DNA from: Candidatus Omnitrophota bacterium
GTDB lineage: Bacteria; Omnitrophota; Gorgyraeia; B26-G9
Assembly (NCBI GenBank): GCA_018895275.1
Contig: JAHIOQ010000032.1
Coordinates: forward strand, 176-64,175
DNA: 64,000 nucleotides
Direction: 5' to 3'
In this document: piece by piece, positions 2,761 through 60,586 of the stretch
Layout: every line of letters starts with the position of its first letter
How positions within the stretch are numbered: position 1 is the first letter of the stretch
The notes under the pieces: generated by a model
Databases searched by the model: none
Told to the model about the DNA's origin: nothing
The model's input: the letters and a program-made list of their open reading frames with translations, nothing else
Program-made: the position numbers and the translations under genes

Positions 2761-2773
2761 CGCCATTGGCGCT

Positions 2774-4146: not shown

Positions 4147-4180
4147 AATTCGAGTTAAAAAAACAGGCTCCTGTAAGTTT

Positions 4181-4224
4181 CTTGTGTTCACACAGAGACA
4201 CAAAGAACACTAAGTTTTTTTATT
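4181..4224 (+). terminator. possible terminator after the exosortase gene
   Basis: CTTGTGTTC (4181-4189) pairs imperfectly with GAACACTAAG (4205-4214) and is followed by T7ATT. The loop is large (15 nt), so the call is weak. Confidence 0.35.
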
Positions 4225-4400
4225 CGACACTTCCATTTATAATTCTTGATATCCCATGTTTTCAACAATAATATCTGCTCTAAATCCCTCGTCAAACTTT
4301 ATGCCTTAATATTAAATTTACACATGTAACTCATGTAGAGAATGTAGAAGAGAAATATTTTGAGCCGGCTAATAAAATTAAAAAACTCCATTCCATAAAA

Positions 4401-4475
4401 CCTACATGCTCTACAGGGACTACATGTTAAAAATTCTACCACATTACCCGTTATAATTGTACCAATCCCATTTTC
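4401..4475 (-). repeat. left copy of a 75-bp inverted repeat pair flanking the sugar-transferase/PEP-CTERM cassette
   Basis: The reverse complement of 4401-4475 aligns with 7333-7408. About 65 of 69 positions are identical outside a roughly 7-nt variable patch. Shared strings are GAAAATGGRATTGGTACAATTATRACGG and TGGTAGAATTTTTAACATGTAGTCCNTGTAGAGCATRTAGG. Confidence 0.85.
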
Positions 4476-4810
4476 TATCATTCTCCGTGTCTCTGCGTCT
4501 TTGTGTGATTATAATATTAAGTTTTTAAATGGGAATCGATGCTTTTTTCTTCTCTCTTGTCCTTCAATGCCTTATATCTTTTCTTTCAATTCATTTAAGA
4601 ATGGACCGCAAAGACAATAATGTTGGCTAATTAGCACAACAGTTGTTTATAAAAATGGACAGAAATAGAGGGACGGAGCAAATATTATTAGTAGAAGTAA
4701 TAAAAGTTAAAACATTAGGTATGTTTTTAAACAAATTTAATTGCTTTAATTTTATATCGTTATAAATATGAACAGATAAAAAATAAAAAAACGCCTTGCT
4801 GCATTGTTTT

Positions 4811-4826
4811 TGGCACAAAAAATGCT
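4811..4826 (+). promoter_or_regulatory. sigma-54 (-24/-12) type promoter upstream of the sugar transferase gene
   Basis: TGGCAC-AAAAAA-TGCT has exact consensus GG-to-GC spacing (G4812 to G4824 = 12 nt). It lies 66 nt upstream of ATG 4892, and a sigma-54 activator is encoded at 10691. Confidence 0.6.
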
Positions 4827-4891
4827 GATAAATGATACTAATACACTAATACACCTTTATTAGAGTTACAACAATAAAAGGAAGCGTAGGT

Positions 4892-5674
4892 ATGTTGAAC
4901 AAAATAGCAAGAGTACATCTTAAAATTCTGGTTTCTACGATTGCCGTTACTTTGCTGCTGGTGATTCCTAAGGTTATGGCTATGTCATCTTCACAAGAGG
5001 CCCTGGCGTTGCGGCCATATGGGGTTTTTGCGTTTTTATTCTGGCTTAGCGGGGTATCGCTTCGTTTTATACAGGCGCGCTTTTTACAGTTGAAACGCGG
5101 TTTTGATATTATGGTTGCTTCTATCAGTCTGATGATTACTTCCCCGATTATTGTGCTCGCGGCCTTGGGGATAAAGCTGTTTTCTCCCAAAGGTCCGGTG
5201 TTTTATTCCCAGTTAAGAGTCGGGGAGAACGGCCGGATATTTAAAATCTATAAATTGCGTTCTATGAAGCCTGATGCGGAGAACGGCACCGGCGCGATAT
5301 GGAGTTCCGGTGAGGCTGATCCGAGATTAATCCCGTTTATCGGAAGATTGATGAGGAAGGCGCATATAGATGAAATTCCGCAATTTTTCAATGTGCTAAA
5401 AGGCGAGATGAGTGTTGTCGGGCCGCGGCCGGAGCGTCCGGAGATAGTGAATATTTTAAAATATGAGATACCGGAATATGAGAAAAGATTGAGGGTAAAA
5501 CCGGGTATTACCGGGCTGGCGCAGGTAAGGAGCAGATATGACAAAACCCTGTCTGATGTGAAGAAAAAGGTGAAGCTTGACCTTTTATATATACGCAAGA
5601 TGTGTCTTTTTACGGAATTAAATATTATTTTTAAGACAGTGTTGGTTATTTTAACAGGTAAAGCGCTAGGTTAA
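4892..5674 (+). CDS. polyprenyl-phosphate sugar phosphotransferase (bacterial sugar transferase family; exopolysaccharide priming enzyme)
   Basis: Contains KRGFDIMVASISL..SPII TM, IDEIPQFFNVLKGEMSVVGPRPERPE and PGITGLAQV, all typical of the WbaP/EpsB-type C-terminal domain. Confidence 0.85.
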   Translation: MLNKIARVHLKILVSTIAVTLLLVIPKVMAMSSSQEALALRPYGVFAFLFWLSGVSLRFIQARFLQLKRGFDIMVASISLMITSPIIVLAALGIKLFSPKGPVFYSQLRVGENGRIFKIYKLRSMKPDAENGTGAIWSSGEADPRLIPFIGRLMRKAHIDEIPQFFNVLKGEMSVVGPRPERPEIVNILKYEIPEYEKRLRVKPGITGLAQVRSRYDKTLSDVKKKVKLDLLYIRKMCLFTELNIIFKTVLVILTGKALG

Positions 5675-5725
5675 AAAGGCATTGGTGCAAAGCTCTGGCG
5701 GATAGAAAAAAAAGTGGTGAGAAAG

Positions 5726-6424
5726 ATGAAAAAATTATTGGTTTTGATAATAATTATGGTATGGGGATTTATTGTCCCGCAATCAAGTTTTGCCGTTATT
5801 ATTATGGCTGATATCGCCAATTCCACGGCGGGGCTTGGCAATTTTGAAGGCACCCTTACCTACAGCGCGGGTAGTGCGACAAACGCGACGCTTGTGATTA
5901 GTTTAAAAAATACCAGTTCTTCAGGTGGTTATCTAACAGCGTTTGTATTGAATAATCCGTTTAATTCCATCTCTGGCATTCCTACCTGGTCGTTTACGAA
6001 TGAGGATTTTAATAAACTTTTTGTCAATGCTGGAATTAAAGGTGAACCTTATGGATATTTTGATATCGGCGCAAGTTTAGGGACAAATCTACACAGTAAT
6101 TTTGCCGATAATGGTCCTCCGACGAAAGGGATAGCTGCGGGTGTTACCGAGACATTCACTTTTAATTTGGCCGGCAGCGGCCTGGACGGATTAACAGAGC
6201 AGAGTTTTATCGACGCGCTTTCCACAGGGGGGAGTTCATATTACGGGCCGCAATTTTTTGTCGCGCGTTTTCGTGGCATACCTGTTGGCGAAGGCAGTGA
6301 TAAAGTTCCGGCAAAAACAAACGGAGAGCCTGTCCCTGAGCCGGCGACGATGTTGTTGCTTGGGCCGGCATTGATGGGATTAGCGGCTACCCGGAAAAAA
6401 ATAGTAAGCAGAGATGATCGGTGA
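5726..6424 (+). CDS. PEP-CTERM sorting-domain protein
   Basis: Signal peptide (MKKLLVLIIIMVWGFIVPQSSFA). C-terminus VPEPATMLLLGPALMGLAATRKK has the PEP motif, a TM segment and a basic tail. The ORF track starts at GTG 5714. Confidence 0.85.
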   Translation: MKKLLVLIIIMVWGFIVPQSSFAVIIMADIANSTAGLGNFEGTLTYSAGSATNATLVISLKNTSSSGGYLTAFVLNNPFNSISGIPTWSFTNEDFNKLFVNAGIKGEPYGYFDIGASLGTNLHSNFADNGPPTKGIAAGVTETFTFNLAGSGLDGLTEQSFIDALSTGGSSYYGPQFFVARFRGIPVGEGSDKVPAKTNGEPVPEPATMLLLGPALMGLAATRKKIVSRDDR

Positions 6425-6589
6425 GTTAGCACGTGTAAAAAAAATAATACAGGAATGACGCGAAGCACTCACTTTTTTAGATAGAACAATGGCCGTGAAT
6501 AAACACAGCGGCCCGGAATAACGTAAGAAGTAGTTAAATATTAAGCAAATGTAATAAATTTTATTAAGAAAAGGGGGTGAATTAGAAAC

Positions 6590-7210
6590 ATGAAAAGATT
6601 AATGTTAGCAGTTCTACTGGTAACAGGTGTAATTATGATGTCTCAACCGGCAATGGCCTTTACCTTTACGCTTAGTCCGGCTCAAATTCAACAGCTTTAT
6701 AAGACTTATGCTACGGGGGGAGCTGGCACAACAGTGTATGAGGTTGAGTCCCTATTTGACGGCGCAAAGTTTATCGGTAAAATCGCTAAAATCGGCGGTG
6801 GTAGTAGCGAGATACCGGAGATTTGGATTGGATCCACTGCGCTGGGGATTAGTGATTTAAGCGGGTTTGACGCGTACGCGTTAAATATCGGTAATTGGAA
6901 TGAAAATACATGGGAATATTGTCTATACTTAAACGCCGGAGGTTCGCCGGTGCAAAGCGGATGGACAGCAATACCGGTTGGCAGTTCTGCGGGTTTAATG
7001 CTGAATCTTACTACAGTATCAGGGTTAAATAATATCTCTGATATAGGTTTTTGTATTCGTGGTAAGGTTCCGCTTGGAACTCCCCGAAACCCTGATTATA
7101 CCTTTGAAACAGTAGTTGCTCCTGTTCCCGAACCGGCAACTATGTTATTGCTCGGGCCGGCATTGTTGGGATTAGCGGGTTTGAAGAGAAAAAAGAGTTC
7201 GTGCGCTTAA
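6590..7210 (+). CDS. PEP-CTERM sorting-domain protein
   Basis: Signal peptide (MKRLMLAVLLVTGVIMMSQPAMA). C-terminus VPEPATMLLLGPALLGLAGLKRKK. A strong RBS (AAGGGGGTG) precedes the start. Confidence 0.88.
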   Translation: MKRLMLAVLLVTGVIMMSQPAMAFTFTLSPAQIQQLYKTYATGGAGTTVYEVESLFDGAKFIGKIAKIGGGSSEIPEIWIGSTALGISDLSGFDAYALNIGNWNENTWEYCLYLNAGGSPVQSGWTAIPVGSSAGLMLNLTTVSGLNNISDIGFCIRGKVPLGTPRNPDYTFETVVAPVPEPATMLLLGPALLGLAGLKRKKSSCA

Positions 7211-7332: not shown

Positions 7333-7408
7333 GAAAATGGAATTGGTACAATTATGACGGATAGCCCTGGTAGAATTTTTAACATGTAGTCCATGTAGAG
7401 CATATAGG
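7333..7408 (+). repeat. right copy of the 75-bp inverted repeat pair
   Basis: See 4401..4475. This copy carries an in-frame stop where the left copy has the 60-aa ORF 4299..4481, which argues that the repeat is non-coding. Confidence 0.85.
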
Positions 7409-7418
7409 CCTTATCGAA

Positions 7419-7457
7419 TGAAATTAATCAGAAGAGTCCAACTCAATTAAGAAAGAA
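7419..7457 (+). repeat. 39-bp conserved intergenic motif, copy 1
   Basis: TGAAATTAATCAGAAGAGTCCAACTCAATTAAGAAAGAA matches 33956-33994 at 37 of 39 positions. Confidence 0.85.
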
Positions 7458-7628
7458 CCAAAATAATTTCGTCAGCGCCGAATTTGACAAAGAGCAGGAA
7501 TTAAGGTATACTACTTACTTAGTTATACTCACTTAGGCTATAAATAGCGTTTATTTTGCTGGACGCATAAACTTTAAACGTGTATAATTTTCAGTAGACT
7601 TAAAAATTATCAAAGCAAGGAGGCTGTC

Positions 7629-8096
7629 ATGATAAAAATTGAGTTCACTGAAAAAGAAAAAGAAATATTAAATTATGAGCGCTATCATCACCCCCATCCG
7701 CGCGTCCAACGAAAAATGGAGGCCTTATGGTTAAAAAGCCAAGGAGAATCGCGTAAACGAATCGCAAAATTAACAGGAGTGTCAGTTAATATTGTTACCC
7801 AATATATTAAAGAATACAAAGCAGGCGGTATCGAAAAATTAAAAGAAATTCATTTTTATAAACCGCAAAGTCAATTAAATGAATACATAATCACAATTGA
7901 AAATTATTTTCAAGAGCATCCTCCTGCAACCGTTAAAGAAGCGATGGCAAAAATTAAGGAACTTACCGGCATTAAACGCAGTGAGGTGCAAATTTGGAAA
8001 TTTATTAAACGCATTGGATTAAAATGTCGAAAAGTAGGCATGATTCCCTCGAAAGTCGATATTGAAAAACAGGAAAACTTTAAAAAAAAGAGTTAG
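7629..8096 (+). CDS. IS630-family transposase, OrfA (HTH DNA-binding part)
   Basis: 155-aa ORF with helix-turn-helix-like segments (RKRIAKLTGVSVNIVTQYIKEY; EVQIWKFIKRIGLKCRKV). It ends just after the slippery A_AAA_AAG at 8084-8090. Confidence 0.8.
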   Translation: MIKIEFTEKEKEILNYERYHHPHPRVQRKMEALWLKSQGESRKRIAKLTGVSVNIVTQYIKEYKAGGIEKLKEIHFYKPQSQLNEYIITIENYFQEHPPATVKEAMAKIKELTGIKRSEVQIWKFIKRIGLKCRKVGMIPSKVDIEKQENFKKKS

Positions 8097-8671
8097 AACC
8101 TCGTCTTAAAGAAGCAAAAAAAGGAACCCGAACCGTTTTTTTTGTTGATGCTGCACATTTTGTTTTAGCGCCTTTTTTAGGATACCTGTGGAGTAGGACG
8201 CGATTATTTCTAAAGGCTCCATCTGGAAGGCAACGGTTTAATGTTTTAGGAGCCCTTAATGCTGTTACGCATGAGTTGATTGCCATCACCAATGACGCTT
8301 ATATCAACTCTCAAAGTGTTTGTGATTTATTATGGAAAATTGCTCATTTAAACTTAAAGACACCTATTACCCTTGTGTTAGATAATGCTCGCTATCAAAG
8401 GTGTAATCTTGTTAAGCAATTTGCAAAGCAGCTTGATATTGAACTTCTGTTTTTGCCAGCATATTCACCGAATCTCAATCTTATTGAACGGCTTTGGAAA
8501 TTTGTCAAAAAGCAATGTTTGTATTCAAAGTATTATTCAGAGTTTGAAAGTTTTAAAAACGCTATCAGCGATTGTCTGGGTAAGACCCATTTAACTTATA
8601 AACGAGAACTTGATTCCCTATTGACTCTCAATTTTCAGATATTTAAGAAAGCACAATTTGTGACCTTTTAA
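8084..8671 (+). CDS. IS630-family transposase, OrfB (DDE catalytic part, reached by a -1 frameshift)
   Basis: The -1 frame is open from 8066. Translation KKELEPRLKEAKKGTRTVFFVDAAHF...LVLDNARYQ...LPAYSPNLNLIERLW shows the D, D, E triad pattern of IS630. The ORF track only shows it from TTG 8276. Confidence 0.75.
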   Translation, partial: KKELEPRLKEAKKGTRTVFFVDAAHFVLAPFLGYLWSRTRLFLKAPSGRQRFNVLGALNAVTHELIAITNDAYINSQSVCDLLWKIAHLNLKTPITLVLDNARYQRCNLVKQFAKQLDIELLFLPAYSPNLNLIERLWKFVKKQCLYSKYYSEFESFKNAISDCLGKTHLTYKRELDSLLTLNFQIFKKAQFVTF

Positions 8672-8779
8672 GGTATACCTTGATTTTTTTTTGAATGCTG
8701 TGTTTAAAAAAATGCACATTCGGCTGTATCTGTAAAGCTAAATATACACTCTTTTTAATAAACGTACCGGAGAATTGAT

Positions 8780-10490: not shown

Positions 10491-10535
10491 CGAAGTCCGA
10501 GGGACGAAGTAAAACAACCGAAGTCCGAGGGACGA
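10491..10535. repeat. two copies of the 17-mer CGAAGTCCGAGGGACGA (ACGAAG-word repeat family)
   Basis: Copies at 10491-10507 and 10519-10535. A related string CCGAAGTCCGAAGGACGATCG lies at 33632-33652. Confidence 0.9.
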
Positions 10536-10572
10536 TCGTTCGTTGCGCTCACTAAGACGAAGGACGGAAATT

Positions 10573-10600
10573 AGCTCATGGCTGATGGCTCATGGCTCAT
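10573..10600. repeat. heptamer array AGCTCAT GGCTGAT GGCTCAT GGCTCAT
   Basis: Direct reading. Same family as 118-148 and 2774-2843. Confidence 0.9.
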
Positions 10601-10690
10601 AGACAAAGGATGAAGTAAACTAACAAAAAAGCTTCAAGCCGCAGGCTGCTGTTATCAGGGAAAAATAGAGGTGGAAGGTGTTTCTCATGG

Positions 10691-31152: not shown

Positions 31153-33630
31153 ATGAGTGATTATGATTTTTTGCGTATAGAAAAGGAGTGGCAGGAGTAT
31201 TGGCGCAGCCATAATCTTTTTAATGTTAAGATGGATGAAAGCAAGGAAAAGTACTATGTCCTGGAGATGTTTCCCTATCCTTCCGGGAGAATCCATATGG
31301 GGCATGTGCGCAATTATACCATCGGCGATGTGATTGCGCGGTATCGAATGCAGGCGGGATTTAATGTGCTGCATCCGATAGGGTTTGATGCCTTCGGCCA
31401 GCCGGCGGAAAACGCGGCGATTAAGCATAAGACAGGCCCGAAAGAATGGACGGAAAATTGTATCAGCTGGATGGTGAAAGAGCTCAAACAGATGGGTTTT
31501 TCCTATGACTGGGACCGCGAGCTTTCCACGCATAGACCGCAATATTATAAATGGAATCAGTGGATCTTTTTGAAGATGTTCGAAAAGGGTTTGGCCTATA
31601 AGAAAAGTTCCGGCGTGAACTGGTGCGCCTCATGTGAAACAACGCTGGCGAATGAAGAGGTGGTCAACGGCGGGTGCTGGCGCTGTCATACGGAGGTTGA
31701 ACAGAAGGAATTGGATCAATGGTACCTGAAAATTACCGAATATCAGGATGCATTGCTGGAAGATCTGGAGCTTTTGAATGACTGGCCGGAACGCGTTATC
31801 ACCATGCAGAAAAATTGGATCGGGAAGAGTTATGGTCTGGAGATATATTTTCCCGAAGTTGATACCGGCACGTTAATTCCCGTGTTTACCACGCGTGCGG
31901 ATACCATTTTTGGCGCTACGTATGTTGTGCTTGCTCCGGAACATCCGCTGCTTGATGAAATGATTAAGGGCCGGTCTCGGGAAAAAGATGTGCGTGAATT
32001 TATCGAACGTGTTTCCAGGGAGAGCAAAATCTCCCGGATGTCTGCGGATGTGAAAAAGGAAGGGATATTCACCGGATGTTTTGCCGTAAATCCGGTTAAT
32101 TATGAAAAAATTCCGATATGGACCGCGGATTACGTGCTTATGGATTACGGCACAGGCGCGATTATGGCCGTGCCGACGCATGACCAGCGGGATTTTCTTT
32201 TTGCCGGGGAGCATCGTTTGCCGATGCGCGTTGTAATCCAATCACCCAATACCCCCAACCAGCTGCCGGAAAAAATGACGCAGGCATATGAAGCAGGCGG
32301 GATATTGGTTAATTCCGCCCAGTTTGACGGTATGGACAATGAGGCGGCTAAGGAAAAGATCGCCTTATGGATGGAGGAAGAAAAGATCGGGCAGAGAAAG
32401 GTGTTTTTCCGGCTGCGGGATTGGCTGATCTCCCGGCAGCGTTACTGGGGAACACCGATCCCGGTGATTTATTGCCGCCAATGCGGGATTGTTCCCGTAC
32501 CGGAAAAGGATTTACCGGTAACCTTGCCGGATAAGATTGAAATCAGCGGTACCGGCGGCAGCCCGTTATCAAAAGTAAAAGAGTTTGTGGATGCGGCGTG
32601 TCCGAAATGCGGGGGGCCGGGGCAAAGAGAAACGGATACGATGGCGACATTTTTTGATTCCTCCTGGTATTTTCTGCGTTATTGCAGCCCGCAGCAGAAT
32701 GAAGCGGTATTTGATAAGCAGGAAGCGAAGTATTGGATGACGGTTGACCAGTATATCGGCGGCATAGAACACGCGGTATTGCATCTATTGTATTCAAGGT
32801 TTTTTGCGAAATTTTTCCGGACACTGGGATTAGTCGACTTTAAAGAACCTTTTCGCAAGCTGCTGACTCAAGGGATGGTGCTTAAGGACGGCGAAGTAAT
32901 GTCCAAATCAAAAGGTAATATTGTTGATCCCGACGAGATGATTAAAAAGTACGGGGCGGATTCCCTGCGTTTGTTTATCCTTTTTGCCGCGCCGCCGGAA
33001 GCGGAGTTTGATTGGAACGAACGCGGCATGGACGGCGCCTGGCGGTTCTTAACCCGTGTCTGGACATTGGTTCAGAACTTCCGCGAATTAAAGCAGGCGG
33101 CCTTGACGCAGCCGCTGCCGATACAGGAAAAAGAGCTTGAATTTAAACTGCATGCGGTAATAAAGAAGGTTACAGAGGAGATGAAGGGAGGGTTTAAGTT
33201 TAATACGGCGATCAGTTCGCTTATGGAGCTGACCAATGAGATTATGCCGGTATTACGGCGGGCGGAAGAAACAAAGCGTATCGGCCCGGTATTGGAACAA
33301 GCCGTCCGTACTCTGGTTATCCTGCTTTCTCCGATAACGCCGCATATGTGCGAAGAATTATGGAAATTGTTCGGCAGCCGCGAGAGTATTATAAAAACAG
33401 CCTGGCCGCGATATGACCCGGCAAAACTGCAAAAAGATGAAATTACGCTGGTTCTTCAAGTAAACGGTAAGGTGCGTTCAAAGATTACCGTGCCCGCGGA
33501 CATCGCGGAAGAAGAATTAAAAACAAGGGCGCTTGACGATACAAAGATTAAGGAATGGGTAAAGGGAAAATCCGTTAAGAAGATTTTTGTCGTTAAAAAT
33601 AAGCTGGTTAATATTCTTCTTGAGGGCTAA
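31153..33630 (+). CDS. leuS: leucyl-tRNA synthetase
   Basis: HIGH-type motif [15 protein letters not shown]-type VMSKSKGN, a CP1 editing region and Zn-type Cys pairs. ATG 31153 is preferred over GTG 31144. Confidence 0.95.
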
Positions 33631-33631
33631 C

Positions 33632-33689
33632 CCGAAGTCCGAAGGACGATCGCTCTCTGCGTTCGCTATGACGAGGGACGAAAGACGAG
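33632..33689. repeat. ACGAAG-word repeat block directly after the leuS stop
   Basis: CCGAAGTCCGAAGGACGATCGCTCTCTGCGTTCGCTATGACGAGGGACGAAAGACGAG parallels 10519-10570. Confidence 0.85.
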
Positions 33690-33793
33690 ATAAAAGGTAA
33701 ACGGTTGCGATGCCCGCCTGTCCTCCTTGGAGGGTATCGTCAGAAAAGGGTAACGTTGAGCGGGTAGAAGCGAGTAGCAGGAAAAAGTATATT

Positions 33794-33810
33794 GGCTGAT
33801 GGCTGATAGC
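33794..33810. repeat. heptamer array GGCTGAT GGCTGAT AGC
   Basis: Direct reading. Confidence 0.85.
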
Positions 33811-33955
33811 AGAAGATAAAAGCCGAAAAAACTTAATTAACCGCCCGCTTCGCTCGATAAACGCTGATTAACGCTGTTTTTAAAATAGTGTGAGAATAAA
33901 AAATATATAAAATAATTTTGGACCCAGATTTTCGCTGATACTCGCAGATTATATA

Positions 33956-33994
33956 TGAAATTAATCGGAAGAGTCCAACTCTATTAAGAAAGAA
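33956..33994 (+). repeat. 39-bp conserved intergenic motif, copy 2 (22 nt upstream of comEA)
   Basis: TGAAATTAATCGGAAGAGTCCAACTCTATTAAGAAAGAA matches 7419-7457 at 37 of 39 positions. Confidence 0.85.
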
Positions 33995-34015
33995 TAGCAA
34001 AAAACAGGCAGAAAA

Positions 34016-34402
34016 ATGTACGAAGCAAAGCTTGAACAAAGAAGAGTTATTGTTTTTATCCTGAGCCTTGCGGCAATATCTCTGGCGCTTTCCTGGGGAA
34101 AAAAGAACCTGGCTGAAAGGGCGGATTCTTTTATCTACCTTTCTAATCCTCAAGAGAATTCTTCCGCTCAGGTTTCCAAAGAAACGCCTGCTTGCACCCG
34201 TGCTCCTGAGATTGTGAATATTAATACCGCTGAGGAATCGCAGCTTCAAACAATACCGGGAATCGGCAGGGTGATTGCTTCGCGTATTGTGGAATATCGC
34301 CTGCAGCACGGCCCGTTTACAAGTAAAGAGGACTTGGTAAAGATAAAAGGGATCGGCAGTAAAAAGCTTGCGCTAATCGAAAAATATATACGTGTAGAAT
34401 GA
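34016..34402 (+). CDS. comEA: ComEA-type helix-hairpin-helix DNA receptor
   Basis: N-terminal TM, then INTAEESQLQTIPGIGRVIASRIVEYRLQHGPFTSKEDLVKIKGIGSKKL. Confidence 0.88.
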   Translation: MYEAKLEQRRVIVFILSLAAISLALSWGKKNLAERADSFIYLSNPQENSSAQVSKETPACTRAPEIVNINTAEESQLQTIPGIGRVIASRIVEYRLQHGPFTSKEDLVKIKGIGSKKLALIEKYIRVE

Positions 34403-34417
34403 AAAGACCGTTGTGTT
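34395..34417 (+). repeat. 23-bp direct repeat, left copy (contains the comEA stop and a vestigial comEC start)
   Basis: TAGAATGAAAAGACCGTTGTGTT versus 38003-38025 TAGAATGAAAAGACCGCTGTGTT (22 of 23 identical). Confidence 0.9.
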
Positions 34418-34510
34418 CAAAAAATAAAGGGGTGGAATTAAAAAAGAAATTAAATTTGAATGTTTGGGGAATGTGGTATAATTAACCACCACCTAAGATA
34501 GGAGGCAGAT

Positions 34511-34783
34511 ATGGCTAAAAAGAAAAAAACGCTGCCGGAGTATGATTCAGAAAGAGAGACCAGAGTATTATTAGAGCAGATGAATAAAAGTATTGGTATT
34601 ATTGCTGAACAGCACGGAGAAACGAACAAGAATATTAATGAGATAAAATCCGAACTTGAAACAGTGAAAATGGCGGTAATGGAAAATAGCGCGAATATAA
34701 AAGCGATCAAATTTAAGCTTGATACCAACATAACAAATCATGATAAAAGAATAACACACCTCGAGGAAAAAGTAGTCGTATAA
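34511..34783 (+). CDS. hypothetical coiled-coil protein (90 aa)
   Basis: Extended -10 TGGTATAAT at about 34466-34474 and an AGGAGG RBS. The sequence is heptad-like and charged. Confidence 0.6.
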   Translation: MAKKKKTLPEYDSERETRVLLEQMNKSIGIIAEQHGETNKNINEIKSELETVKMAVMENSANIKAIKFKLDTNITNHDKRITHLEEKVVV

Positions 34784-34870
34784 AGAATTTGGAGAAAGAT
34801 TTGCTTATATTACTAAGAAGTGGGATAATGGAAAGGCGGAAATAAATGGTCGCTTCCTTGTTTCCTCTTA

Positions 34871-35004
34871 TTGAAAAAAAAGGGATTATGCAGATAATAT
34901 CGATTAATCAAACAACGTCCCCTTCGTCCCCCCTTCGTCCCATCTTGAAAAAAAAGGGATTATGCAGATAATATCGATTAATCAAACAACGTCCCCTTCG
35001 TCCC
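34871..35004 (+). repeat. tandem duplication: perfect 60-nt unit repeated with a 74-nt period
   Basis: TTGAAAAAAAAGGGATTATGCAGATAATATCGATTAATCAAACAACGTCCCCTTCGTCCC occurs at 34871-34930 and 34945-35004. It is followed by more CCCTTCGTCCC words up to about 35050. Confidence 0.95.
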
Positions 35005-35191
35005 ACGTCCCATCCCCTTCGTCCCAAACAACGTCCCCTTCGTCCCCCTTGGCATTGCTTTAATCGCAAGCCCATTGGTCTTGAAGTATGATTTTGAGAA
35101 TAAAGCGTTGAATGTTTTGCTGTATTTGCCGTTTTTGGTTAATCTTTTAATTTTATTTATGATTGCCAGGTCATTGGAATAAAAAAAACGT

Positions 35192-35220
35192 TTGACAAAG
35201 TGTCTATATTTGTGTATACT
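35192..35220 (+). promoter_or_regulatory. sigma-70 promoter of the toxin-antitoxin operon
   Basis: TTGACA (35192-35197), 17-nt spacer, TATACT (35215-35220). The GGAGGG RBS and ATG 35244 follow. Confidence 0.6.
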
Positions 35221-35243
35221 TATGATAGAAGGAGGGATTTGTT

Positions 35244-35543
35244 ATGAGTCTAATTGTAAGAAAATTATTTAGACATGGCGGCAGTTACGCGATAGATTTA
35301 CCAATGGAATTTATTAAGAATGCAGGTACACTTGAGGTTATTTTAGAGAGTACGCCGAATAGATTAAGCATTCGTCCTAAAACAGAATTAGATAGTATTG
35401 AATCAGACCCTCTGTTTGCTGAATTTATTAATGCGTTGACAGTTGATGCAATGAAACATCCGGAAAAACTTCATGAAGCAAAGAAGGTTTGGGATAAAGA
35501 ATGGGATGAGCTTCTTAAGGGGGTTACTGTTGATGAAGAGTAA
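35244..35543 (+). CDS. prlF: PrlF/SohA-like AbrB-fold antitoxin
   Basis: 99 aa. The N-terminal KLFRHGGSYAIDLPMEF looks like a swapped-hairpin motif. It sits upstream of, and overlaps, a YhaV-like ORF. Confidence 0.6.
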   Translation: MSLIVRKLFRHGGSYAIDLPMEFIKNAGTLEVILESTPNRLSIRPKTELDSIESDPLFAEFINALTVDAMKHPEKLHEAKKVWDKEWDELLKGVTVDEE

Positions 35544-35979
35544 CTACCTCTTGAAATACCACGATTTTTACTTCCTGCGTATAGCCAAACTAAAAGAGCA
35601 AGTAAAAGAGCTGCGTAATAAACTTAGTAATGAAGCATTCAGGCAACACGAAATTGTAAAGCTTGCTTATCGCATTCGTGAAGCTGATCAAGAAATTATT
35701 CCCCAGGATCCAAACCGGCCGGAATATCGCCTGACTGGCAATCTTAAAAAATATCGCCGTTATAAACAAGGCCTACAACGCTATAGGCTGTTTTTTTGTT
35801 TTGCAAATCAGCCTAAGATTATTCTATATCTATACCTGAATGATGAAAGGCATTTGCGCAAGGCCGGGGACAGGAATGATCCCTATGAAGAATTTAGTCG
35901 CCTTGTAGATAAGGAATGCTTTTCACACAAGCCTGATGACCCCAAAATCCAGAAGTGGATAAAAAGTTATCGTCCATAA
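35533..35979 (+). CDS. yhaV: YhaV-family type II toxin (ribonuclease)
   Basis: EYRLTGNLKKYRRYKQGLQRYRLFFCFANQPKIILYLYLNDERHLRKAGDRNDPYEEFSRL matches the YhaV pattern as I recall it. The start is taken at the ATG overlapping the antitoxin end. Confidence 0.65.
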   Translation: MKSNYLLKYHDFYFLRIAKLKEQVKELRNKLSNEAFRQHEIVKLAYRIREADQEIIPQDPNRPEYRLTGNLKKYRRYKQGLQRYRLFFCFANQPKIILYLYLNDERHLRKAGDRNDPYEEFSRLVDKECFSHKPDDPKIQKWIKSYRP

Positions 35980-36007
35980 GCGAAAGATTGCATAAATTTA
36001 GGTAGTT

Positions 36008-37477
36008 ATGAAACCACTGATATTTTTAGTATGTTTAATTTTAATCATAGAGAATATCTCCATAGCTCAACCGCTTGCTCAAAACCACTTAAGAGTAAAG
36101 ATAACCGTTCCTTATCCGTATTCCCTGATCAGAGGTGATGTCCCCATCTATGGAGTTGCCTGCGGCGAAGGTTTTAAAGAATATAAATTGGAATACGGCG
36201 AGGGAGAGAACCCTCAAGCATGGAAGCTTATCGTTAAGTCTGAGAAGCCTCAATTAGAAGAGAACAGCTGGCCTAAAGTGGATTTTTCCCTGGACAAAAC
36301 AATCCCGGGTAATTTGGGGGTTTGGGATACGGGTTTAAGTGAATATGAATATGGAAAACATTTGGTTGACCTGCCAATGGGGACTTATACCTTAAAATTG
36401 ACCGTTAGCAGTCGTTCCGGAGATATAAAAGAGGACCGGGTGGTGGTAGAGGTAGGCCGGGTGGTGTTAAATGCTTTTAGCAGTAAACTGGAAAGTATTG
36501 ATGCTAAAGCAGATTTATTGATCCAGGAACATTCGTTACAAAGCGCTGCGGGGGTTTTTTCCTTAAAGCCTTTGAACATAAAAGCCGAAGGCATTCCCCA
36601 GGGATATAGATTGATTGGGGATGTTTATGAAGTCAATCCTCCGGGAGAGAAATTTACCCGGAAGGCACAATTGGCGATTGTGTATGATAAGTCAAAAGTT
36701 TCTAATGCGGAGAATCTGGGTATTTTTGTTTTTAATCCTGAGATAAATGATTGGCAGTATTTGGAGACTTTTTGTGATGAAAAAACAGACCGATTGGAGG
36801 CGGAGATAGATTCTTTGCCGGAGAAATTTGCGGTTTATGCGGTATTTGAGGCTAAAACGATAAACAATAGGATTAGTCAAAAGGAACAACTAAAGGTTGC
36901 TGAGCCGATCAGTCCTGTTTTAGCTAATGATACCTTTGAAAACGGGTTAGACCAGTGGAAAAATAAACATGGCGCGGCAGGCGCGGTTTTAGAGTTGGAT
37001 AGCAAACAGAATAAAGATAAGGGTTATTGTTTAAAAATAATAGATAGAAATGGAGGAGGGAATTTTGCTTCTCTTATAAGAAGCGAACCTTTTGATGCGC
37101 GGATATACATAATAGTAAAATTTGACTACAGAATCGACAAGGATGTTAAAACCAATTTTTTAGTAAAGGTAAATAATAAATGGTATGACATTGTTTTTAC
37201 CGATGATGAAAAAGTCTACTGGGATATTAATATGGAAAAGATCGGAGAAATTGCCGGGGTAATTGCCGATAATCGATGGCATTGCGCGGAACTTAATCTT
37301 TATGAAATGCTGAGGTCATATACGGATGAGTTTATCGTCCAGGAAATGGTTATGGCCGACTGGGATTCTACCGGGTTTAAGAAACTCGAATTTGGGCATA
37401 ACCCTAAAGGAGCAACGTATTATATCGATAATTTTGAGATAAAATCCGGAGCTAAATCTTATATATGGTGTTTCTGA
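36008..37477 (+). CDS. secreted protein of unknown function (signal peptide; Ig-like and CBM-like regions), probably truncated by a frameshift
   Basis: 489-aa ORF with signal MKPLIFLVCLILIIENISIA. A segment FAVYAVFEA resembles the HFSMYVVAG segment of the 823-aa protein. Confidence 0.7.
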   Translation: MKPLIFLVCLILIIENISIAQPLAQNHLRVKITVPYPYSLIRGDVPIYGVACGEGFKEYKLEYGEGENPQAWKLIVKSEKPQLEENSWPKVDFSLDKTIPGNLGVWDTGLSEYEYGKHLVDLPMGTYTLKLTVSSRSGDIKEDRVVVEVGRVVLNAFSSKLESIDAKADLLIQEHSLQSAAGVFSLKPLNIKAEGIPQGYRLIGDVYEVNPPGEKFTRKAQLAIVYDKSKVSNAENLGIFVFNPEINDWQYLETFCDEKTDRLEAEIDSLPEKFAVYAVFEAKTINNRISQKEQLKVAEPISPVLANDTFENGLDQWKNKHGAAGAVLELDSKQNKDKGYCLKIIDRNGGGNFASLIRSEPFDARIYIIVKFDYRIDKDVKTNFLVKVNNKWYDIVFTDDEKVYWDINMEKIGEIAGVIADNRWHCAELNLYEMLRSYTDEFIVQEMVMADWDSTGFKKLEFGHNPKGATYYIDNFEIKSGAKSYIWCF

Positions 37478-37727
37478 ACTAAAACCTTCTTATGTTTTAA
37501 AAATAAATACAGGGACACAGAAATCTTCAACCGTTGGGCTTAATTTAAGAAAATTTGAGATTATATTAAACGGTAATAAATTGAAAGAGTTTTATTATTC
37601 CGGAAGCGCAGAACAAATTTCCATATCAGTCCCTAACGAATATGTGAAACAAGGGGCAAATGTTATAAGAATAAACTGCCCTAATAACAAGGATGATATA
37701 CCATTTTTAAAAATGAAGATGGAATAA
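37443..37727 (+). pseudogene. start-less 94-codon open frame continuing the 36008 gene in the +1 frame
   Basis: My translation is NPELNLIYGVSELKPSYVLKINTGTQKSSTVGLNLRKFEIILNGNKLKEFYYSGSAEQISISVPNEYVKQGANVIRINCPNNKDDIPFLKMKME. There is no ATG, GTG or TTG near its 5' end, and it overlaps the end of the 36008 ORF at an A4 run (37441-37444). Confidence 0.45.
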
Positions 37728-38002
37728 AAAATGAAAGATTGAATCATAAGATTAGTTAATAAATTAAAAAAGACATAATTAATCTTAGCGTACTTTGCGG
37801 CTTGGCGCGAGAAAAAAATAAGAAGTTATAACAAAACCAATAAAGAAGGGCTCAAGCGATATGTTTTATAGTTTCTTCGTGCTCTTCGTGTCCTTCGTGG
37901 TAAAATAAAATTAAAGGGTATTATAAGCTTTCTTGAGCCGGATGATAGTAAGTGGTAACATATTCTTAGGAAATTAAAAAGGATATCAAAAAAATTTTGC
38001 AA

Positions 38003-38025
38003 TAGAATGAAAAGACCGCTGTGTT
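38003..38025 (+). repeat. 23-bp direct repeat, right copy (contains the comEC start)
   Basis: See 34395..34417. Confidence 0.9.
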
Positions 38026-39536
38026 TTATATGTATAAGTGTGATTGCCGGGATCCTTAGCGCGGACCTCTTTTGGGTTTCGTTTCGAGCGCTTATCCCGG
38101 CTTTGGCGGTGCTGATTGCCGGCTTATGGTTTTACCTGCGAAATAGCCGTTTATTCTTTGTTTTCCTTTTTTTTGCTTCTTTTACCGTGGGTATGTGCCT
38201 GGTGGTTAATTCCCGCACTTTAGCGCCGGACCATATCGCCAAATTTACCCCGGCTAAGGGCAAAGAGGTGACGTTAAAGGGCCGCGTAGTTTCAGAGCCG
38301 GAGCAGAGAAAGAATAGAGATATATTTCTGCTCGAAGCGGAAACAGTCGAGATGAACTCTAAGGTATCTAAAACGCAGGGCAAGGTATTGGTTGTATTAT
38401 TCAAAGAGGTAAAAGGCATTGATTACGGAAAGGAATTGATTTTGCGCGGAAAGCTGTACCGTCCGTATGCCTTTAGGATTTCCCGGCGCTTGAATTACCG
38501 GGATTATCTGATGCGGCGCGGCATATATTCCATGCTGTCCGTAAGCAAAGCGGCCGGCGAAGTGATTTTTACGCGGGAAGATATTGCCAACCCTCTGCTG
38601 CAGGCTGCGTTCGTGCTGCGTAAAAAGATTACGGCAATCAACCGCGCGTATCTCTCCGCGAACGCGGCGGGAGTAATCAGTGCGATGGTTGTCGGATTGC
38701 GCCATGAGGTGCCTTCCTTCTTTAATAATTTATTGCAGCATACAGGGACAATTCATATCCTGGCCGTGTCGGGATTGCATGTCGGAATCATGGTGTTTTT
38801 GGTTATCATGGCATTGCGTCTTTTTGCCATGCCTTACCGGCTGCAGTATTCTCTGGCAATACTTATGCTTGTTTTCTTTTGCCTGCTTAGCGGAGCACGG
38901 ACTTCCGTGGTCAGGGCAACAGTTATGGCCGGTATCTTTCTTGTCGCGTTTCTGGTTAACCGTGATTATGACCCGCTTTCGGCATTGAGCCTGGCGGCAT
39001 TGGTAATTCTTTCCGGCTATCCGCTGCAGATTTTTGATGCCGGATTTCAGTTGTCTTTTTCAAGCGTATTATCTATTTTTCTTTTTCATGAAAAGATTAG
39101 CGCCTGTTTCCCGAAAAAACTGCTTAATCATAAATCGTGCGCTTATCTATTGAAAATGTTTGCCGTTTCTCTGGCAGCATGGCTGGGTACCCTGGGGATA
39201 ACCGCCTATCATTTTAGTATAATTACGCCGGTAGCGGTCATTGCCAATATGGCAGTTATCCCGCTGCTTTTTGTCGTCGTTGTAAGTGCGGTTTTGTTTC
39301 TTGCCGGGACAATGATTTCCCCTTTACTCGCTGCGGCCCTGGCGCTGAATTGTGAATTTTTCGTAAATCTCGTTTATAAAATAAACGCCGTTTTCTTTCG
39401 TTTGCCGGGAGCGTATTATTACGTTCCCGGATTTAAATTTGCCTATGCGGCGGCATACTATTGTGCGGTTATCATTGTTATAGCAGGCGGAAATTTTTTA
39501 GTACGCTATAGGCGGAACCTGGGGCGGCATGTTTAG
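38007..39536 (+). CDS. comEC: ComEC/Rec2 DNA uptake channel (OB/DUF4131 and competence domains; no metallo-beta-lactamase domain)
   Basis: 509 aa and polytopic, with TGTIHILAVSGLHVGIM and GFQLSFSSV. The length is about 250 aa shorter than three-domain ComEC. Confidence 0.82.
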   Translation: MKRPLCFICISVIAGILSADLFWVSFRALIPALAVLIAGLWFYLRNSRLFFVFLFFASFTVGMCLVVNSRTLAPDHIAKFTPAKGKEVTLKGRVVSEPEQRKNRDIFLLEAETVEMNSKVSKTQGKVLVVLFKEVKGIDYGKELILRGKLYRPYAFRISRRLNYRDYLMRRGIYSMLSVSKAAGEVIFTREDIANPLLQAAFVLRKKITAINRAYLSANAAGVISAMVVGLRHEVPSFFNNLLQHTGTIHILAVSGLHVGIMVFLVIMALRLFAMPYRLQYSLAILMLVFFCLLSGARTSVVRATVMAGIFLVAFLVNRDYDPLSALSLAALVILSGYPLQIFDAGFQLSFSSVLSIFLFHEKISACFPKKLLNHKSCAYLLKMFAVSLAAWLGTLGITAYHFSIITPVAVIANMAVIPLLFVVVVSAVLFLAGTMISPLLAAALALNCEFFVNLVYKINAVFFRLPGAYYYVPGFKFAYAAAYYCAVIIVIAGGNFLVRYRRNLGRHV

Positions 39537-39595
39537 TTCGCTGATGTAATAAGGCACAAAAGAGCCGGCGTTAATGCGAATATCCGGGTCATTAT

Positions 39596-39631
39596 ATATG
39601 GCAAAATATATGGCGAAATATATGGCAAAAT
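39596..39631 (+). repeat. three tandem 12-mers ATATGGCRAAAT upstream of gmhB
   Basis: Copies at 39596-39607, 39608-39619 and 39620-39631, followed by the inverted partial copy TTGCCAATAT (39635-39644). Confidence 0.9.
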
Positions 39632-39674
39632 GTGTTGCCAATATAATCGAATTGATATATACTAAAATATTCTA

Positions 39675-58002: not shown

Positions 58003-59073
58003 ATGGCATCTAATATAGAAAAATTACTTAATATTATGCTGGAAAAAGGGGGCTCGGATTTACATATCCACGCGGAAACTTTTCCTATAGTAAGAATTAA
58101 TGGTAAATTGACGGCAGTTGAAAAGGATGTCTTGTCTGCGGAAGACTCGAAAAAACTGGTTTATGCTTTGCTGAATGAAACGGAAATAAAAATTCTGGAA
58201 AAAAGAAAAGAGCTGGATAAAGGCTTTTCTCTTGAGGATAAAGGGCGGTTTCGTTTAAATGCGTTTTACCATAGAGGGGCGGTATGTGCGGCAATCCGCT
58301 CCGTACCGTTGACGGTACCTGATTTTAAGACATTGGGGCTGCCGGAAGAACAGATGGCAAGTATCTGCAGAAGCAAAAGCGGGCTGGTGTTGGTTACAGG
58401 AGCAACCGGGGTAGGGAAAACCACCACGCTGGCGTCAATTGTTGACCGGATTAATGCCGAACGTTACTGTCATATTATAACAATCGAGGATCCCGTCGAG
58501 GTTGTGCATAAAAACAAAAAGAGTATTATTACCCAGAGAGAAGTGGGAAATGATACGCTTGGTTTTGGCCCTGCCCTAAAGTATATATTGCGTCAGGATC
58601 CGGATGTCATTCTTATTGGTGAAATGCGTGATTTTGAGACAATACAGGCGGCGCTTAATATCGCTGAAACCGGGCATTTGGTATTTGCCACATTACATAC
58701 TACGGATTGTGTGCAGACAATTAACCGAATTATCGACGTTTTTCCGGGGTCTCAACAGTCACAGGTACGCACGCAGCTTTCCTACGTTTTGTTGGCGACC
58801 ATTTCTCAACAGCTGCTGCCAAAGACGGACTCTAGCGGCCTGTGTTTAGCGGTGGAGATAATGGTTTCCAACTTTGGAGTCAGGACGATGATTCGGGAAG
58901 ATAAAATTCATCAGATATTTTCTATGATTCAAACCGGGCAGAAAGAAGGCATGAAGACAATGAACCAATCCTTGTTCGAACTTTACCGTGAGGGGAAAAT
59001 CAGCTATCAGGAGGCTTCATTGCATGTGAGTGATCTTGAAGATTTCAAGCGTTTTTTTAAAGATGGAAGGTAG
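58003..59073 (+). CDS. pilT: type IV pilus retraction ATPase PilT (copy 1)
   Basis: GGSDLHI, Walker A GATGVGKTTT, Asp box ITIEDPVE, Walker B ILIGEMRD, and His box GHLVFATLHT. Confidence 0.9.
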   Translation: MASNIEKLLNIMLEKGGSDLHIHAETFPIVRINGKLTAVEKDVLSAEDSKKLVYALLNETEIKILEKRKELDKGFSLEDKGRFRLNAFYHRGAVCAAIRSVPLTVPDFKTLGLPEEQMASICRSKSGLVLVTGATGVGKTTTLASIVDRINAERYCHIITIEDPVEVVHKNKKSIITQREVGNDTLGFGPALKYILRQDPDVILIGEMRDFETIQAALNIAETGHLVFATLHTTDCVQTINRIIDVFPGSQQSQVRTQLSYVLLATISQQLLPKTDSSGLCLAVEIMVSNFGVRTMIREDKIHQIFSMIQTGQKEGMKTMNQSLFELYREGKISYQEASLHVSDLEDFKRFFKDGR

Positions 59074-59521: not shown

Positions 59522-60586
59522 ATGGCAATAGAGATGGCGAAATTATTACAGTTGCTTATTGAAAGAAAAGGCTCTGACTTGCATCTGGGCGCGAATTCTC
59601 CGCCGTATTTGCGAATTGATGAAAACCTTGTGCCCGCGGACCCGGCGGTTCTTTCGACAACAGAAGTGCGGGAACTGATTTATAGCCTTTTGTCTCCGGA
59701 AGAAGTGGAGATATTCGAAAGAGAGAAGGAATTGGACCGGTCTTTTGAAGTGGAAGGCCTGAGTCGGTTTCGTATGAACATATTTTTTCAGCGCGGATAT
59801 GTAGGGGCGGCGCTGCGCGTGATTCCGTTTAAGATTTCGACATTTTCCGAGTGCGGCCTGCCGGTAAAGGTTATTACGGAGCTTTCCCGTAGGCCGAAAG
59901 GGCTGGTACTTGTAACCGGGGCTACCGGTTGCGGTAAGTCAACGACCCTGGCTTCGATTGTTGATAAAGTTAACGACGAACGCCAGTGCCATATTATCAC
60001 CGTGGAAGATCCGATAGAATTTGTTCACCGCAATAAGAGAGCGGTTATCGACCAGCGCGAGGTCGGACAGGATACCAAGACTTTTGCCAGGGCCTTGAAG
60101 TATGTATTGAGGCAGGATCCCGATGTGATTCTCATCGGCGAAATGAGAGATATGGAGACCATAGAGGCGGCGCTTACGATTGCGGAAACCGGCCATCTGG
60201 TTTTTGCCACGCTGCATACTTCCGATGCGGTACAGACGATAAACCGGATTATCGATGTATTTCCTTCGCATCAACAGCAGCAGGTGAGGACACAGCTTTC
60301 CTTTGTGTTATTGGGAATCCTTTCTCAACAGTTGATTCCGAAAGTCGGAGGCGCAGGCCGCGTGCTGGCTTTGGAGGTTATGGTGGCAACGGCTGCGTTA
60401 AAAAGTATGATTCGGGAACAGAAAGGCCACCAGATTTATTCGATTATTCAAACCGGACAGAAAGAGGGCATGGTCACGATGAATCAGTCTCTGTGCGATC
60501 TTTACGTGCGTAAACTGATTTCTTATGAACATGCCATAGGCCGGTCAATGGACCCGGATGATCTTATTCGGCTTTTAAAGAAGTAA
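59522..60586 (+). CDS. pilT: type IV pilus retraction ATPase PilT (copy 2)
   Basis: GSDLHL, GATGCGKSTT, ITVEDPIE, ILIGEMRD and GHLVFATLHT. Confidence 0.9.
   Translation: MAIEMAKLLQLLIERKGSDLHLGANSPPYLRIDENLVPADPAVLSTTEVRELIYSLLSPEEVEIFEREKELDRSFEVEGLSRFRMNIFFQRGYVGAALRVIPFKISTFSECGLPVKVITELSRRPKGLVLVTGATGCGKSTTLASIVDKVNDERQCHIITVEDPIEFVHRNKRAVIDQREVGQDTKTFARALKYVLRQDPDVILIGEMRDMETIEAALTIAETGHLVFATLHTSDAVQTINRIIDVFPSHQQQQVRTQLSFVLLGILSQQLIPKVGGAGRVLALEVMVATAALKSMIREQKGHQIYSIIQTGQKEGMVTMNQSLCDLYVRKLISYEHAIGRSMDPDDLIRLLKK

Follow-up and report, generated by a model that had tools for sequence, protein, structure and literature searches.

A mosaic islet of foreign composition between comEA and comEC of an uncultured Omnitrophota bacterium, flanked by a duplication of the gene junction

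We analysed a 64-kb stretch of DNA (the window, to which all coordinates refer) from an uncultured Omnitrophota bacterium, in which the DNA-uptake genes comEA and comEC are separated by 3,585 bp enclosed between two copies of a 23-bp direct repeat. The repeat is a piece of the comEA/comEC junction, and the enclosed DNA, which we call the islet, is a patchwork whose modules recur in other loci, among them arrays that carry a tyrosine recombinase. The best explanation is, in our judgement, an insertion of accessory DNA that duplicated the junction and whose modules stem from an Omnitrophota pool; we regard it as likely.

The two copies, TAGAATGAAAAGACCGTTGTGTT at 34395-34417 and TAGAATGAAAAGACCGCTGTGTT at 38003-38025, are identical at 22 of 23 positions, as an earlier note on this DNA had reported, and they are the only matches to the 23-mer with up to three mismatches in the whole 64 kb (none expected from 100 shuffles). 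The lone differing base, T in the left copy and C in the right, is synonymous (Leu, TTG vs CTG), and the longest exact run common to both copies is 16 nt. No significant similarity was found beyond the edges of the 23 bp (flank test: upstream p 0.04, downstream p 0.9), on which ground an originally longer duplication was rejected. Across 27 fetched loci (denoted by L numbers below), the core ATGAAAAGACCGYT is present at comEC starts only. A search of JGI metagenome contigs and IMG/VR with the 23-mer (Y at the variable base) returned no match, so that the sequence is not a widespread repeat unrelated to comEC, an option that the earlier note had raised. The 23-mer is a duplicated segment of the junction and not a dispersed repeat. 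The junction comprises the following features:

34016-34402 (+): comEA, 128 amino acids (aa), full length with its native C-terminus (Pfam HHH_3, 8e-22)
34395-34417 (+): left 23-bp copy with a comEA stop/comEC start of ancestral type (ATGA), by direct reading; it resembles ...AAAAAATATATAAGTTTATAATGAACGCGCCGCTT of the relative L007
34399-34485 (+): relic open reading frame (ORF) of 28 codons, the first six (MKRPLC) copying the comEC start and the other 22 unrelated to it, by direct reading
38003-38025 (+): right 23-bp copy with the working comEC start; this junction is also found in the assembly GCA_022013175.1 (L005)
38007-39536 (+): comEC, 509 aa, intact, without a metallo-beta-lactamase domain (Pfam DUF4131 and Competence, 4e-53)

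Both genes bear the marks of a DNA-uptake pair, namely a helix-hairpin-helix DNA-binding domain in ComEA and the DUF4131 and Competence channel domains in ComEC (Pfam). The C-terminus of ComEA, IEKYIRVE, aligns to its end with IKENISLE of L006. The 3' end of comEA reads CGT GTA GAA TGA, and its stop (TGA, 34400-34402) is overlapped by the ATG at 34399-34401. Direct reading bore out the description of the left copy as the comEA stop joined to a start encoding MKRPLC, with a frame that diverges thereafter and ends after 28 codons; when the relic ORF was aligned with ComEC N-termini, the match was limited to the first six residues. The length of the intact ComEC and its N-terminus, MKRPL, agree with those of relatives, whose ComEC proteins also have no metallo-beta-lactamase domain. 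The predicted sequence of the empty site is ...ATATACGTGTAGAATGAAAAGACCGYTGTGTTTTATATGTATAAG....

The nearest ComEC relatives are 44-50% identical at the aa level (closest 49%); a scan of GTDB genomes gave distant ComEC relatives only, and exact-protein look-ups for ComEA and ComEC returned none under the window's own sequences, the GenBank twin differing by one residue. The gene order leuS-comEA-comEC-HAD phosphatase-NIL/Fer4-acetyltransferase (GNAT)-aconitase is kept in relatives, in which the spacing between the two genes is as follows:

L007/L008/L009: stop and start overlap by 1 nt (TAATG)
L012/L013: gap of 8 nt
L006: gap of 46 nt
L010: the two genes are separated by an unrelated 386-aa gene

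In the four representatives L006, L007, L010 and L012, every islet gene is missing at this position, and the junction is uninterrupted in L006, L007/8/9 and L012/13, at ~45-50% ComEC identity, as the comparison proposed in the earlier note called for. The L007 junction, AAAAAATATATAAGTTTATAATGAA..., closely parallels GAAAAATATATACGTGTAGAATGAA... of the window. These comparisons support comEA directly abutting comEC as the probable ancestral arrangement. The earlier suggestion that the two genes were originally coupled through ATGA holds as far as the abutment goes; the exact overlap is deduced from the left copy alone, since relatives display a 1-nt overlap or short gaps.

The islet DNA is compositionally foreign. 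Its GC content is 0.369, against 0.449 +/- 0.029, the lowest for any segment of that size in the window, and its tetranucleotide distance is likewise the window extreme (0.311 vs 0.182 +/- 0.037), so that the proposed comparison of the islet with its flanks came out in favour of a foreign origin. The second most compositionally deviant stretch, 3181-7210, encodes an exosortase (EpsH), a sugar transferase and two PEP-CTERM proteins, whose C-terminal sorting signals are near-identical (6329-6401 and 7121-7193).

Within the islet, the following features were recognized from left to right:

34456-34482 (+): promoter-like site of the 90-aa gene, TTGAAT, a 15-nt spacer and TGgTATAAT, then an AGGAGG ribosome-binding site, by direct reading
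34511-34783 (+): gene for a 90-aa coiled-coil protein (homologues 92-93% aa identical)
34871-35046 (+): two exact 74-bp tandem units, then 21-bp CAAACAACGTCCCCTTCGTCC repeats; one unit is common to L019/L020
35018-35181 (+): remnant of a family-2 glycosyltransferase (GT) gene, last ~53 codons (tblastn of the L017 GT)
35192-35220 (+): promoter-like site of the toxin-antitoxin (TA) operon, TTGACA-17-TATACT, matching the consensus at 11 of 12 positions
35244-35543 (+): PrlF-like antitoxin, 99 aa, weak NCBIfam match, upstream of the toxin gene
35533-35979 (+): YhaV-family toxin, 148 aa (Pfam Toxin_YhaV, PF11663, 3.6e-27)
36008-37477 (+): gene X, a 489-aa secreted protein (homologues 45-59% identical)
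37446-37727 (+): out-of-frame C-terminal remnant of a long-form X (tblastn, other frame)
37728-38002 (no strand): AT-rich (30% GC), non-coding right end of the islet, 275 bp, with an array of three TCTTCGTGC (composition, repeat scan)

The islet is a mosaic of five parts, the 90-aa module, the tandem repeats, the GT remnant, the TA cassette and gene X; at least four pieces in it differ in history, and two of these are gene fragments. The claim that a single mobile islet had integrated thus survives in part: foreign DNA was inserted with a 23-bp duplication, and what was inserted is a mosaic and not one coherent element.

The 90-aa module occupies the left end. The block 34436-34783 is 96-97% identical at the nucleotide level to the JGI contigs L019 and L020, and the homology runs on at 84% through one 74-bp unit before ending at the 3' edge of that unit, past which L019/L020 carry MntA/HepT instead. 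The hexamers of the 90-aa promoter recur, conserved, in front of the family genes of L019, L021, L022 and L023-L027; a simple promoter scan missed this promoter because its spacer is 15 nt. The protein itself gave generic coiled-coil matches only in the PDB. Close copies reside on other contigs (up to 93% aa identity), with at least three paralogues in the source genome, and no member of the family was found on viral contigs (IMG/VR). Alignment of the family reveals conserved N- and C-terminal segments (PEYDSERETRVLLEQ... and ...KLDTNIxNHEKRITKLEEKV), and lengths range from 88 to 132 aa through variable numbers of short coiled-coil repeats (e.g. DTKVNNL). The tandem duplication noticed earlier is real, 34871-34930 equalling 34945-35004 at 100%. 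The 74-bp unit does not form an attC-like or terminator-like fold above shuffled sequences on either strand (z 0.7 and 1.3; -0.2 and -0.1 for the L019 copy), and the 23-bp repeats also fold no better than shuffles. A diverged third 74-bp copy at the right end of the islet was considered and dropped, as its alignment was unconvincing.

The TA cassette displays the layout of PrlF/YhaV operons: the antitoxin gene comes first, overlaps the toxin gene by 11 nt and has its own promoter. The YhaV assignment is firm, with 95.5 bits against a gathering score of 35 over profile positions 4-124 of 138, and the NCBI name of the protein is YhaV family toxin. The antitoxin matched the NCBIfam PrlF model NF007429 weakly (E 0.002, 17.9 bits against a cut-off of 125, C-terminal half only) and had no Pfam match. 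Of the PrlF/YhaV pair with a consensus promoter that had been proposed, the toxin, the operon layout and the promoter therefore stand, while the antitoxin is PrlF-like by a weak match. Promoter and pair together (35192-35970, 782 nt) are 81% identical at the nucleotide level to a cassette in L021, where the antitoxin homologue adjoins the YhaV homologue.

The remaining coding parts resemble a surface operon of other loci. L017/L018 have a TPR protein first, then the glycosyltransferase, X and the SpvB/TcdB/RHS protein, and the GT stop overlaps the X start. The GT remnant of the window aligns with residues 499-551 of the L017 GT (tblastn, E 1.5e-10, 49% identity; SPLVLKYDFENKALNVLL / SPLVFKYDFENKAVNLLL). 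By comparison with this order, the window contains a broken piece of a GT-X-RHS operon, and the TA cassette has come to lie precisely where GT and X would overlap. The X family was seen in Omnitrophota-type MAGs (metagenome-assembled genomes) only, in a short form of ~480 aa and a long one of ~720-775 aa, and the protein has no Pfam or PDB match. Residues 633-715 of P0124 (E 5e-5) and 667-748 of P0134 (7e-6) align at 37446-37700. The 489-aa gene is thus frameshifted, as suspected, with the refinement that ~150 residues have also been deleted between the intact part and the C-terminal ~85 long-form residues, which are out of frame. X lies in an operon with a 1495-aa SpvB/TcdB/RHS protein in L017 (2944-12934), and its neighbours in L016 (694-10399) include an IS3-type transposase and a surface protein of 1627 aa; X probably belongs to a toxin-delivery or surface complex. 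Finally, no locus fetched from another genome has a homologue of the right end (37728-38002), and Rfam found no RNA family in 33000-39000.

Two of the islet modules, the 90-aa gene and the PrlF/YhaV pair, are in many cases joined to a tyrosine recombinase and RHS toxin fragments. The surroundings of the 90-aa gene in other loci are:

L021: upstream, a 307-aa XerD-like tyrosine recombinase (Pfam Phage_integrase, 4.5e-43); downstream, an orphan RHS C-terminal tip, a small immunity-like gene and PrlF/YhaV
L023: upstream, a recombinase of the same type; downstream, an RHS tip and a small gene
L024: upstream, a recombinase of the same type; downstream, the contig end
L022: upstream, only a short relic of the recombinase 3' end; downstream, an RHS tip
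L019/L020: upstream, the contig end; downstream, MntA/HepT
L026 (a distant member): upstream, no recombinase; downstream, AbiE-like genes
L027 (same genome): upstream, a glycosyltransferase and polysaccharide cluster, no recombinase; downstream, a mannose-1-phosphate guanylyltransferase

The L021 array spans 2061-5485, between groEL and an ABC-transporter gene, and the RHS tips of the related arrays begin at the end of a DPxGL-type core and are followed by small genes. The association of the 90-aa gene with a recombinase is frequent, not obligatory. By similarity, the two islet modules appear to derive from such recombinase/90-aa/cassette arrays of other Omnitrophota.

These arrays recall the rAID-1 clusters of Bacteroidales, in which a 5' XerD-like recombinase heads low-GC genes of one orientation together with immunity genes and the remnants of toxins, the recombinase being recognized by >44% identity to a reference (Ross et al., bioRxiv 10.1101/471110). 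L021, L023 and L024 share with them the 5' XerD-like recombinase, co-directional low-GC downstream genes, orphan RHS tips, immunity-like genes and modules that vary between genomes; this likeness does not establish membership. In contrast to rAID-1, the arrays occur in Omnitrophota, begin with a 90-aa coiled-coil gene and include TA pairs. The islet itself has four co-directional genes of low GC (0.30-0.40 vs 0.45), where rAID-1 calls for at least two downstream, and it has no 5' XerD-like recombinase and no orphan immunity genes or toxin remnants. Orphan rhs/YD-repeat modules offer another parallel, as the related loci have RHS tips with small genes and X adjoins an SpvB/TcdB/RHS gene in L017; the islet differs in having no RHS sequence, neither the RHS protein of L017 nor the tip of L021 giving a tblastn match.

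With chromosomal integrons, the arrays have exchangeable single-operon cassettes in common, such as PrlF/YhaV here and MntA/HepT in L019 after the same module. A stabilising effect on arrays is ascribed to TA cassettes. The differences are that there is no IntI and no attC-like palindrome, that the cassettes have their own promoters and that a 23-bp duplication is no integron signature; furthermore, unlike in rAID-1 or integrons, no conserved structured intergenic repeat was found; the 74-bp unit does not fold. A further close parallel is with TA-stabilised islets flanked by direct repeats. Low-GC DNA, conserved neighbours, a duplicated target, a self-promoted TA pair and absence from relatives are all found here, and the 23-bp pair takes the form of the attL/attR-type direct repeats that flank integrative elements. 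Here, however, there is no integrase, tRNA target or mobility gene, the target is a 4-nt stop/start overlap and the interior is mostly gene debris. The islet is a small degraded accessory islet, and as such a known kind of thing.

These observations demonstrate that DNA was inserted, that the junction was duplicated, that the inserted DNA is a mosaic and that its modules are linked to recombinase arrays; from them we infer an enzyme, an order of events and effects on comEC expression and islet stability. In the ancestor, comEA and comEC would have stood head to tail, the comEA stop overlapping the comEC start (ATGA). Accessory DNA would then have been inserted 19 nt into comEC, leaving 23 bp that span the overlap on both sides: the left copy would retain the comEA stop and the right copy would rebuild the comEC start, with both genes whole and their translational coupling lost. 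Without the junction duplication, the comEA stop or the comEC start would be destroyed, which may be why this insertion persisted. The inserted modules would comprise the self-promoted 90-aa gene, the PrlF/YhaV cassette with its promoter and a broken GT-X-RHS surface operon. Integration may have occurred at a pseudo-site, by a XerD-like tyrosine recombinase that acted in trans or was later deleted, the 23 bp being the shared core. Although mobilisation had been called unclear, the XerD-like recombinase of the related arrays is now a candidate, short of proof. We favour its action at a pseudo-site over a staggered break tentatively and by a narrow margin. The left edge of the islet lies just upstream of the 90-aa promoter, at about the place of the recombinase gene end in related arrays, and there is a loose resemblance between 34418-34445 and the last codons of the recombinase (MAFFT).

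Several observations weigh against insertion as described or against a recombinase as its agent. The left junction is present in one assembly only, no same-species empty site or circular junction turned up in the 23-mer search of JGI contigs and IMG/VR, and the nearest comparators, only ~49% identical in ComEC, do not date the insertion. No recombinase exists in the 64-kb window (tblastn with the L021 recombinase), and the 23-mer has no inverted-arm structure or hairpin (fold test). A resemblance of the junction, as a pseudo-site, to the recombinase 3' end gave local-alignment p values of 0.02-0.25 with differing segments per locus, and was treated as chance. The L021 array, which bears a recombinase and has complete flanks, is not flanked by direct repeats, and the L027 paralogue, without a recombinase, indicates that the 90-aa gene has no strict recombinase partner. 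Finally, L010 (PVC-group MAG GCA_024231215.1) carries at 4834-5994 a protein of 386 aa that begins with a signal-peptide-like stretch and matches no Pfam family; this insert is a second, independent invasion of the comEA/comEC junction, so other ways of invading it exist.

As to the assembly, the islet was seen in two MAG assemblies and one Logan assembly, the latter matching 35677-37838 exactly. The second MAG assembly, GCA_022013175.1, reproduces the window from 34710 onward; there its contig JAKLQU010000072.1 begins, inside the 90-aa gene, and an identical full-length 90-aa protein is found in that assembly under a separate accession. The overlapping contig ends at 34710 hint at a graph branch, due to strain variation or to the nearby 74-bp duplication. 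A contig chimera formed through a short repeat, with the true comEA-comEC uninterrupted and the islet located elsewhere, could draw on this branch or repeat in the assembly graph, and on the left junction being found in just one of the assemblies examined. A k-mer chimera is nevertheless unlikely because the exact run common to both copies, just 16 nt, is shorter than any usual assembler k-mer, and because the left copy has a base of its own (T). Moreover, the second assembly confirms the right junction between islet and comEC, with 13 mismatches in 14.8 kb, and the proteins 90-aa, YhaV, X and ComEC of the source MAG (MBU4477932, 934, 935 and 936) are consecutive on one 70.4-kb contig. We give an artefact of this kind hardly any credence. 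The same small weight goes to the idea that the intervening genes are ancestral and were lost in relatives, the 23-bp similarity having arisen by local duplication or convergence. The comparators are indeed distant (ComEC 44-50% identity), and L010 also has a gene between comEA and comEC. However, its insert is unrelated, and all four representative relatives have none of the islet genes there; the composition is extreme, the fragments come from genes whose intact copies sit in other operons, modules are 81-97% identical at the nucleotide level to copies in other contexts, and 19 nt of comEC coding sequence persist in the left copy, where no selection would maintain them.

As to how the DNA entered, no Phage_integrase, rve, DDE or serine-recombinase match was found in the islet, confirming with Pfam, PHROGs, PADLOC and tblastn the lack of an integrase or transposase that had been remarked on before, and no terminal inverted repeats pair its ends. 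A transposon, insertion sequence (IS) or miniature inverted-repeat element was rejected, given these absences and a duplication of 23 bp (vs 2-14 bp), and an integron was rejected for lack of IntI and of an attC-like fold. A serious competitor of the recombinase, though in our view rather doubtful, is illegitimate insertion: DNA, for instance taken up by the competence machinery, would have been ligated into a break with 23-nt staggered ends, or joined by microhomology or template switching, with fill-in duplication, no dedicated recombinase and later reshuffling of the interior. The absence of recombinase, transposase and terminal inverted repeats is what it predicts, as are a 23-mer without recombinase-site-like symmetry or hairpin and an interior made of gene fragments, as from random joins. 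L022 and the window keep different lengths of the putative recombinase 3' relic, contrary to one fixed crossover, and L010 acquired its unrelated insert at the same junction independently. Against this, a sharp-edged duplication of 23 bp is unusually long and tidy for end-joining, selection alone would need just the 4-nt overlap duplicated, and the left edge coincides with the approximate recombinase gene end of related arrays. Less probable still is a decayed integrative island or prophage that used its own integrase to enter the 5' end of comEC through a 23-bp attP core identical to the target, after which deletions would have spared attL, attR and little in between. Flanking repeats as long as an att core, low GC, gene remnants with an internal deletion, a TA pair (common on islands) and a possible ~28-nt recombinase 3' relic at 34418-34445, like those in L021 and L022, would suit such an element. 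However, the relic similarity lies in A-rich sequence, and the deletion would have to stop within ~30 nt of attL. In addition, the cargo consists of chromosomal-type surface-operon fragments, phage and conjugation genes are lacking (PHROGs matched YhaV only) and the 90-aa family is absent from IMG/VR.

The insertion of accessory DNA, our preferred explanation, would have consequences for both gene expression and the upkeep of the islet. We infer that the translational coupling of comEA and comEC was lost. To judge from the gene layout, comEC transcripts probably arise by read-through from the islet promoters of the 90-aa gene or the TA operon, which is plausible because the islet genes are co-directional with comEA and comEC and no strong plus-strand terminator lies between X and comEC. 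No obvious Shine-Dalgarno sequence precedes comEC, and a simple promoter scan found no promoter in the right end of the islet; any comEC promoter must sit in 37728-38002 or upstream. TA modules have been proposed to stabilise islands and integrons. By analogy, the YhaV/PrlF pair probably helps to keep the islet in place: the repeats could mediate its precise deletion, and an active pair would penalise such loss.

Other repeats in the window call for separate mention. Word repeats had been listed among the elements of the islet, but they do not set it apart: those in the islet reflect a genome-wide habit of intergenic tandem arrays. The intergenic positions 117-227, 2780-2856, 10572-10613, 33793-33826 and 39594-39641 are taken up by tandem heptamer arrays (TAGCTCA/TGGCTGA) and, just after comEC, by a fourfold 12-mer array of ATATATGGCAAA. 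Dispersed intergenic repeats were also found, at 4401-4475 (-) and 7333-7408 (+), 76 nt, 88% identical and inverted, and at 33632-33683 and 10518-10569 (52 nt, 83%). The leuS-comEA spacer, 385 bp, is several-fold longer than in relatives and largely made of dispersed repeats. A 40-nt direct repeat, 95% identical (ATGAAATTAATCRGAAGAGTCCAACTCWATTAAGAAAGAA), lies at 7418-7457 and 33955-33994; one copy stops 21 nt short of the comEA start and the other is just outside an IS630-like element, and it could be a 10-codon mini-ORF or a shared leader or promoter element. The IS630-like element has the sole transposase seen in the window, split into two ORFs (helix-turn-helix ORF 7629-8096, DDE_3 ORF 8276-8671), with 13-nt inverted repeats ~1.19 kb apart (at about 7499-7511 and 8673-8685). 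The IS630 family duplicates TA. As a mobiliser of the islet, this transposase was rejected, being 26 kb away with unrelated ends, and the 40-nt repeat lies outside its 13-nt inverted repeats. Elsewhere in the window, the adjacent paralogous genes 58526-58986 and 60045-60505 are 73-78% identical over ~400 nt.

The islet shows in a clean natural case how two genes with a stop/start overlap can survive an insertion there, through duplication of the junction, while the coupling of a DNA receptor (ComEA) to its channel (ComEC) is broken. It also speaks of gene flow, as the 90-aa gene and PrlF/YhaV modules are 81-97% identical at the nucleotide level in genomes whose housekeeping proteins are about half identical. 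The more interesting lead is not the islet but the recombinase/90-aa-gene/cassette arrays in other Omnitrophota, a lead that rests on eight metagenome loci. Omnitrophota are thought to be predatory or host-dependent. If the association is real, they have toxin/immunity cassette-collecting arrays comparable to those of gut Bacteroidales. Speculatively, and at odds we consider long, Omnitrophota might carry an undescribed integron- or rAID-like platform, consisting of a XerD-like recombinase, a self-promoted 90-aa leader gene of variable coiled-coil length and exchangeable toxin/immunity cassettes (orphan RHS tips, PrlF/YhaV, MntA/HepT, AbiE-like). The islet would then be a recombinase-less offshoot that this recombinase had placed at a pseudo-site, the comEA/comEC overlap, with the 23-bp core duplication as its trace. 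If this were true and comEC had been rewired to the islet promoters, DNA uptake would be tied to the state of a TA promoter.

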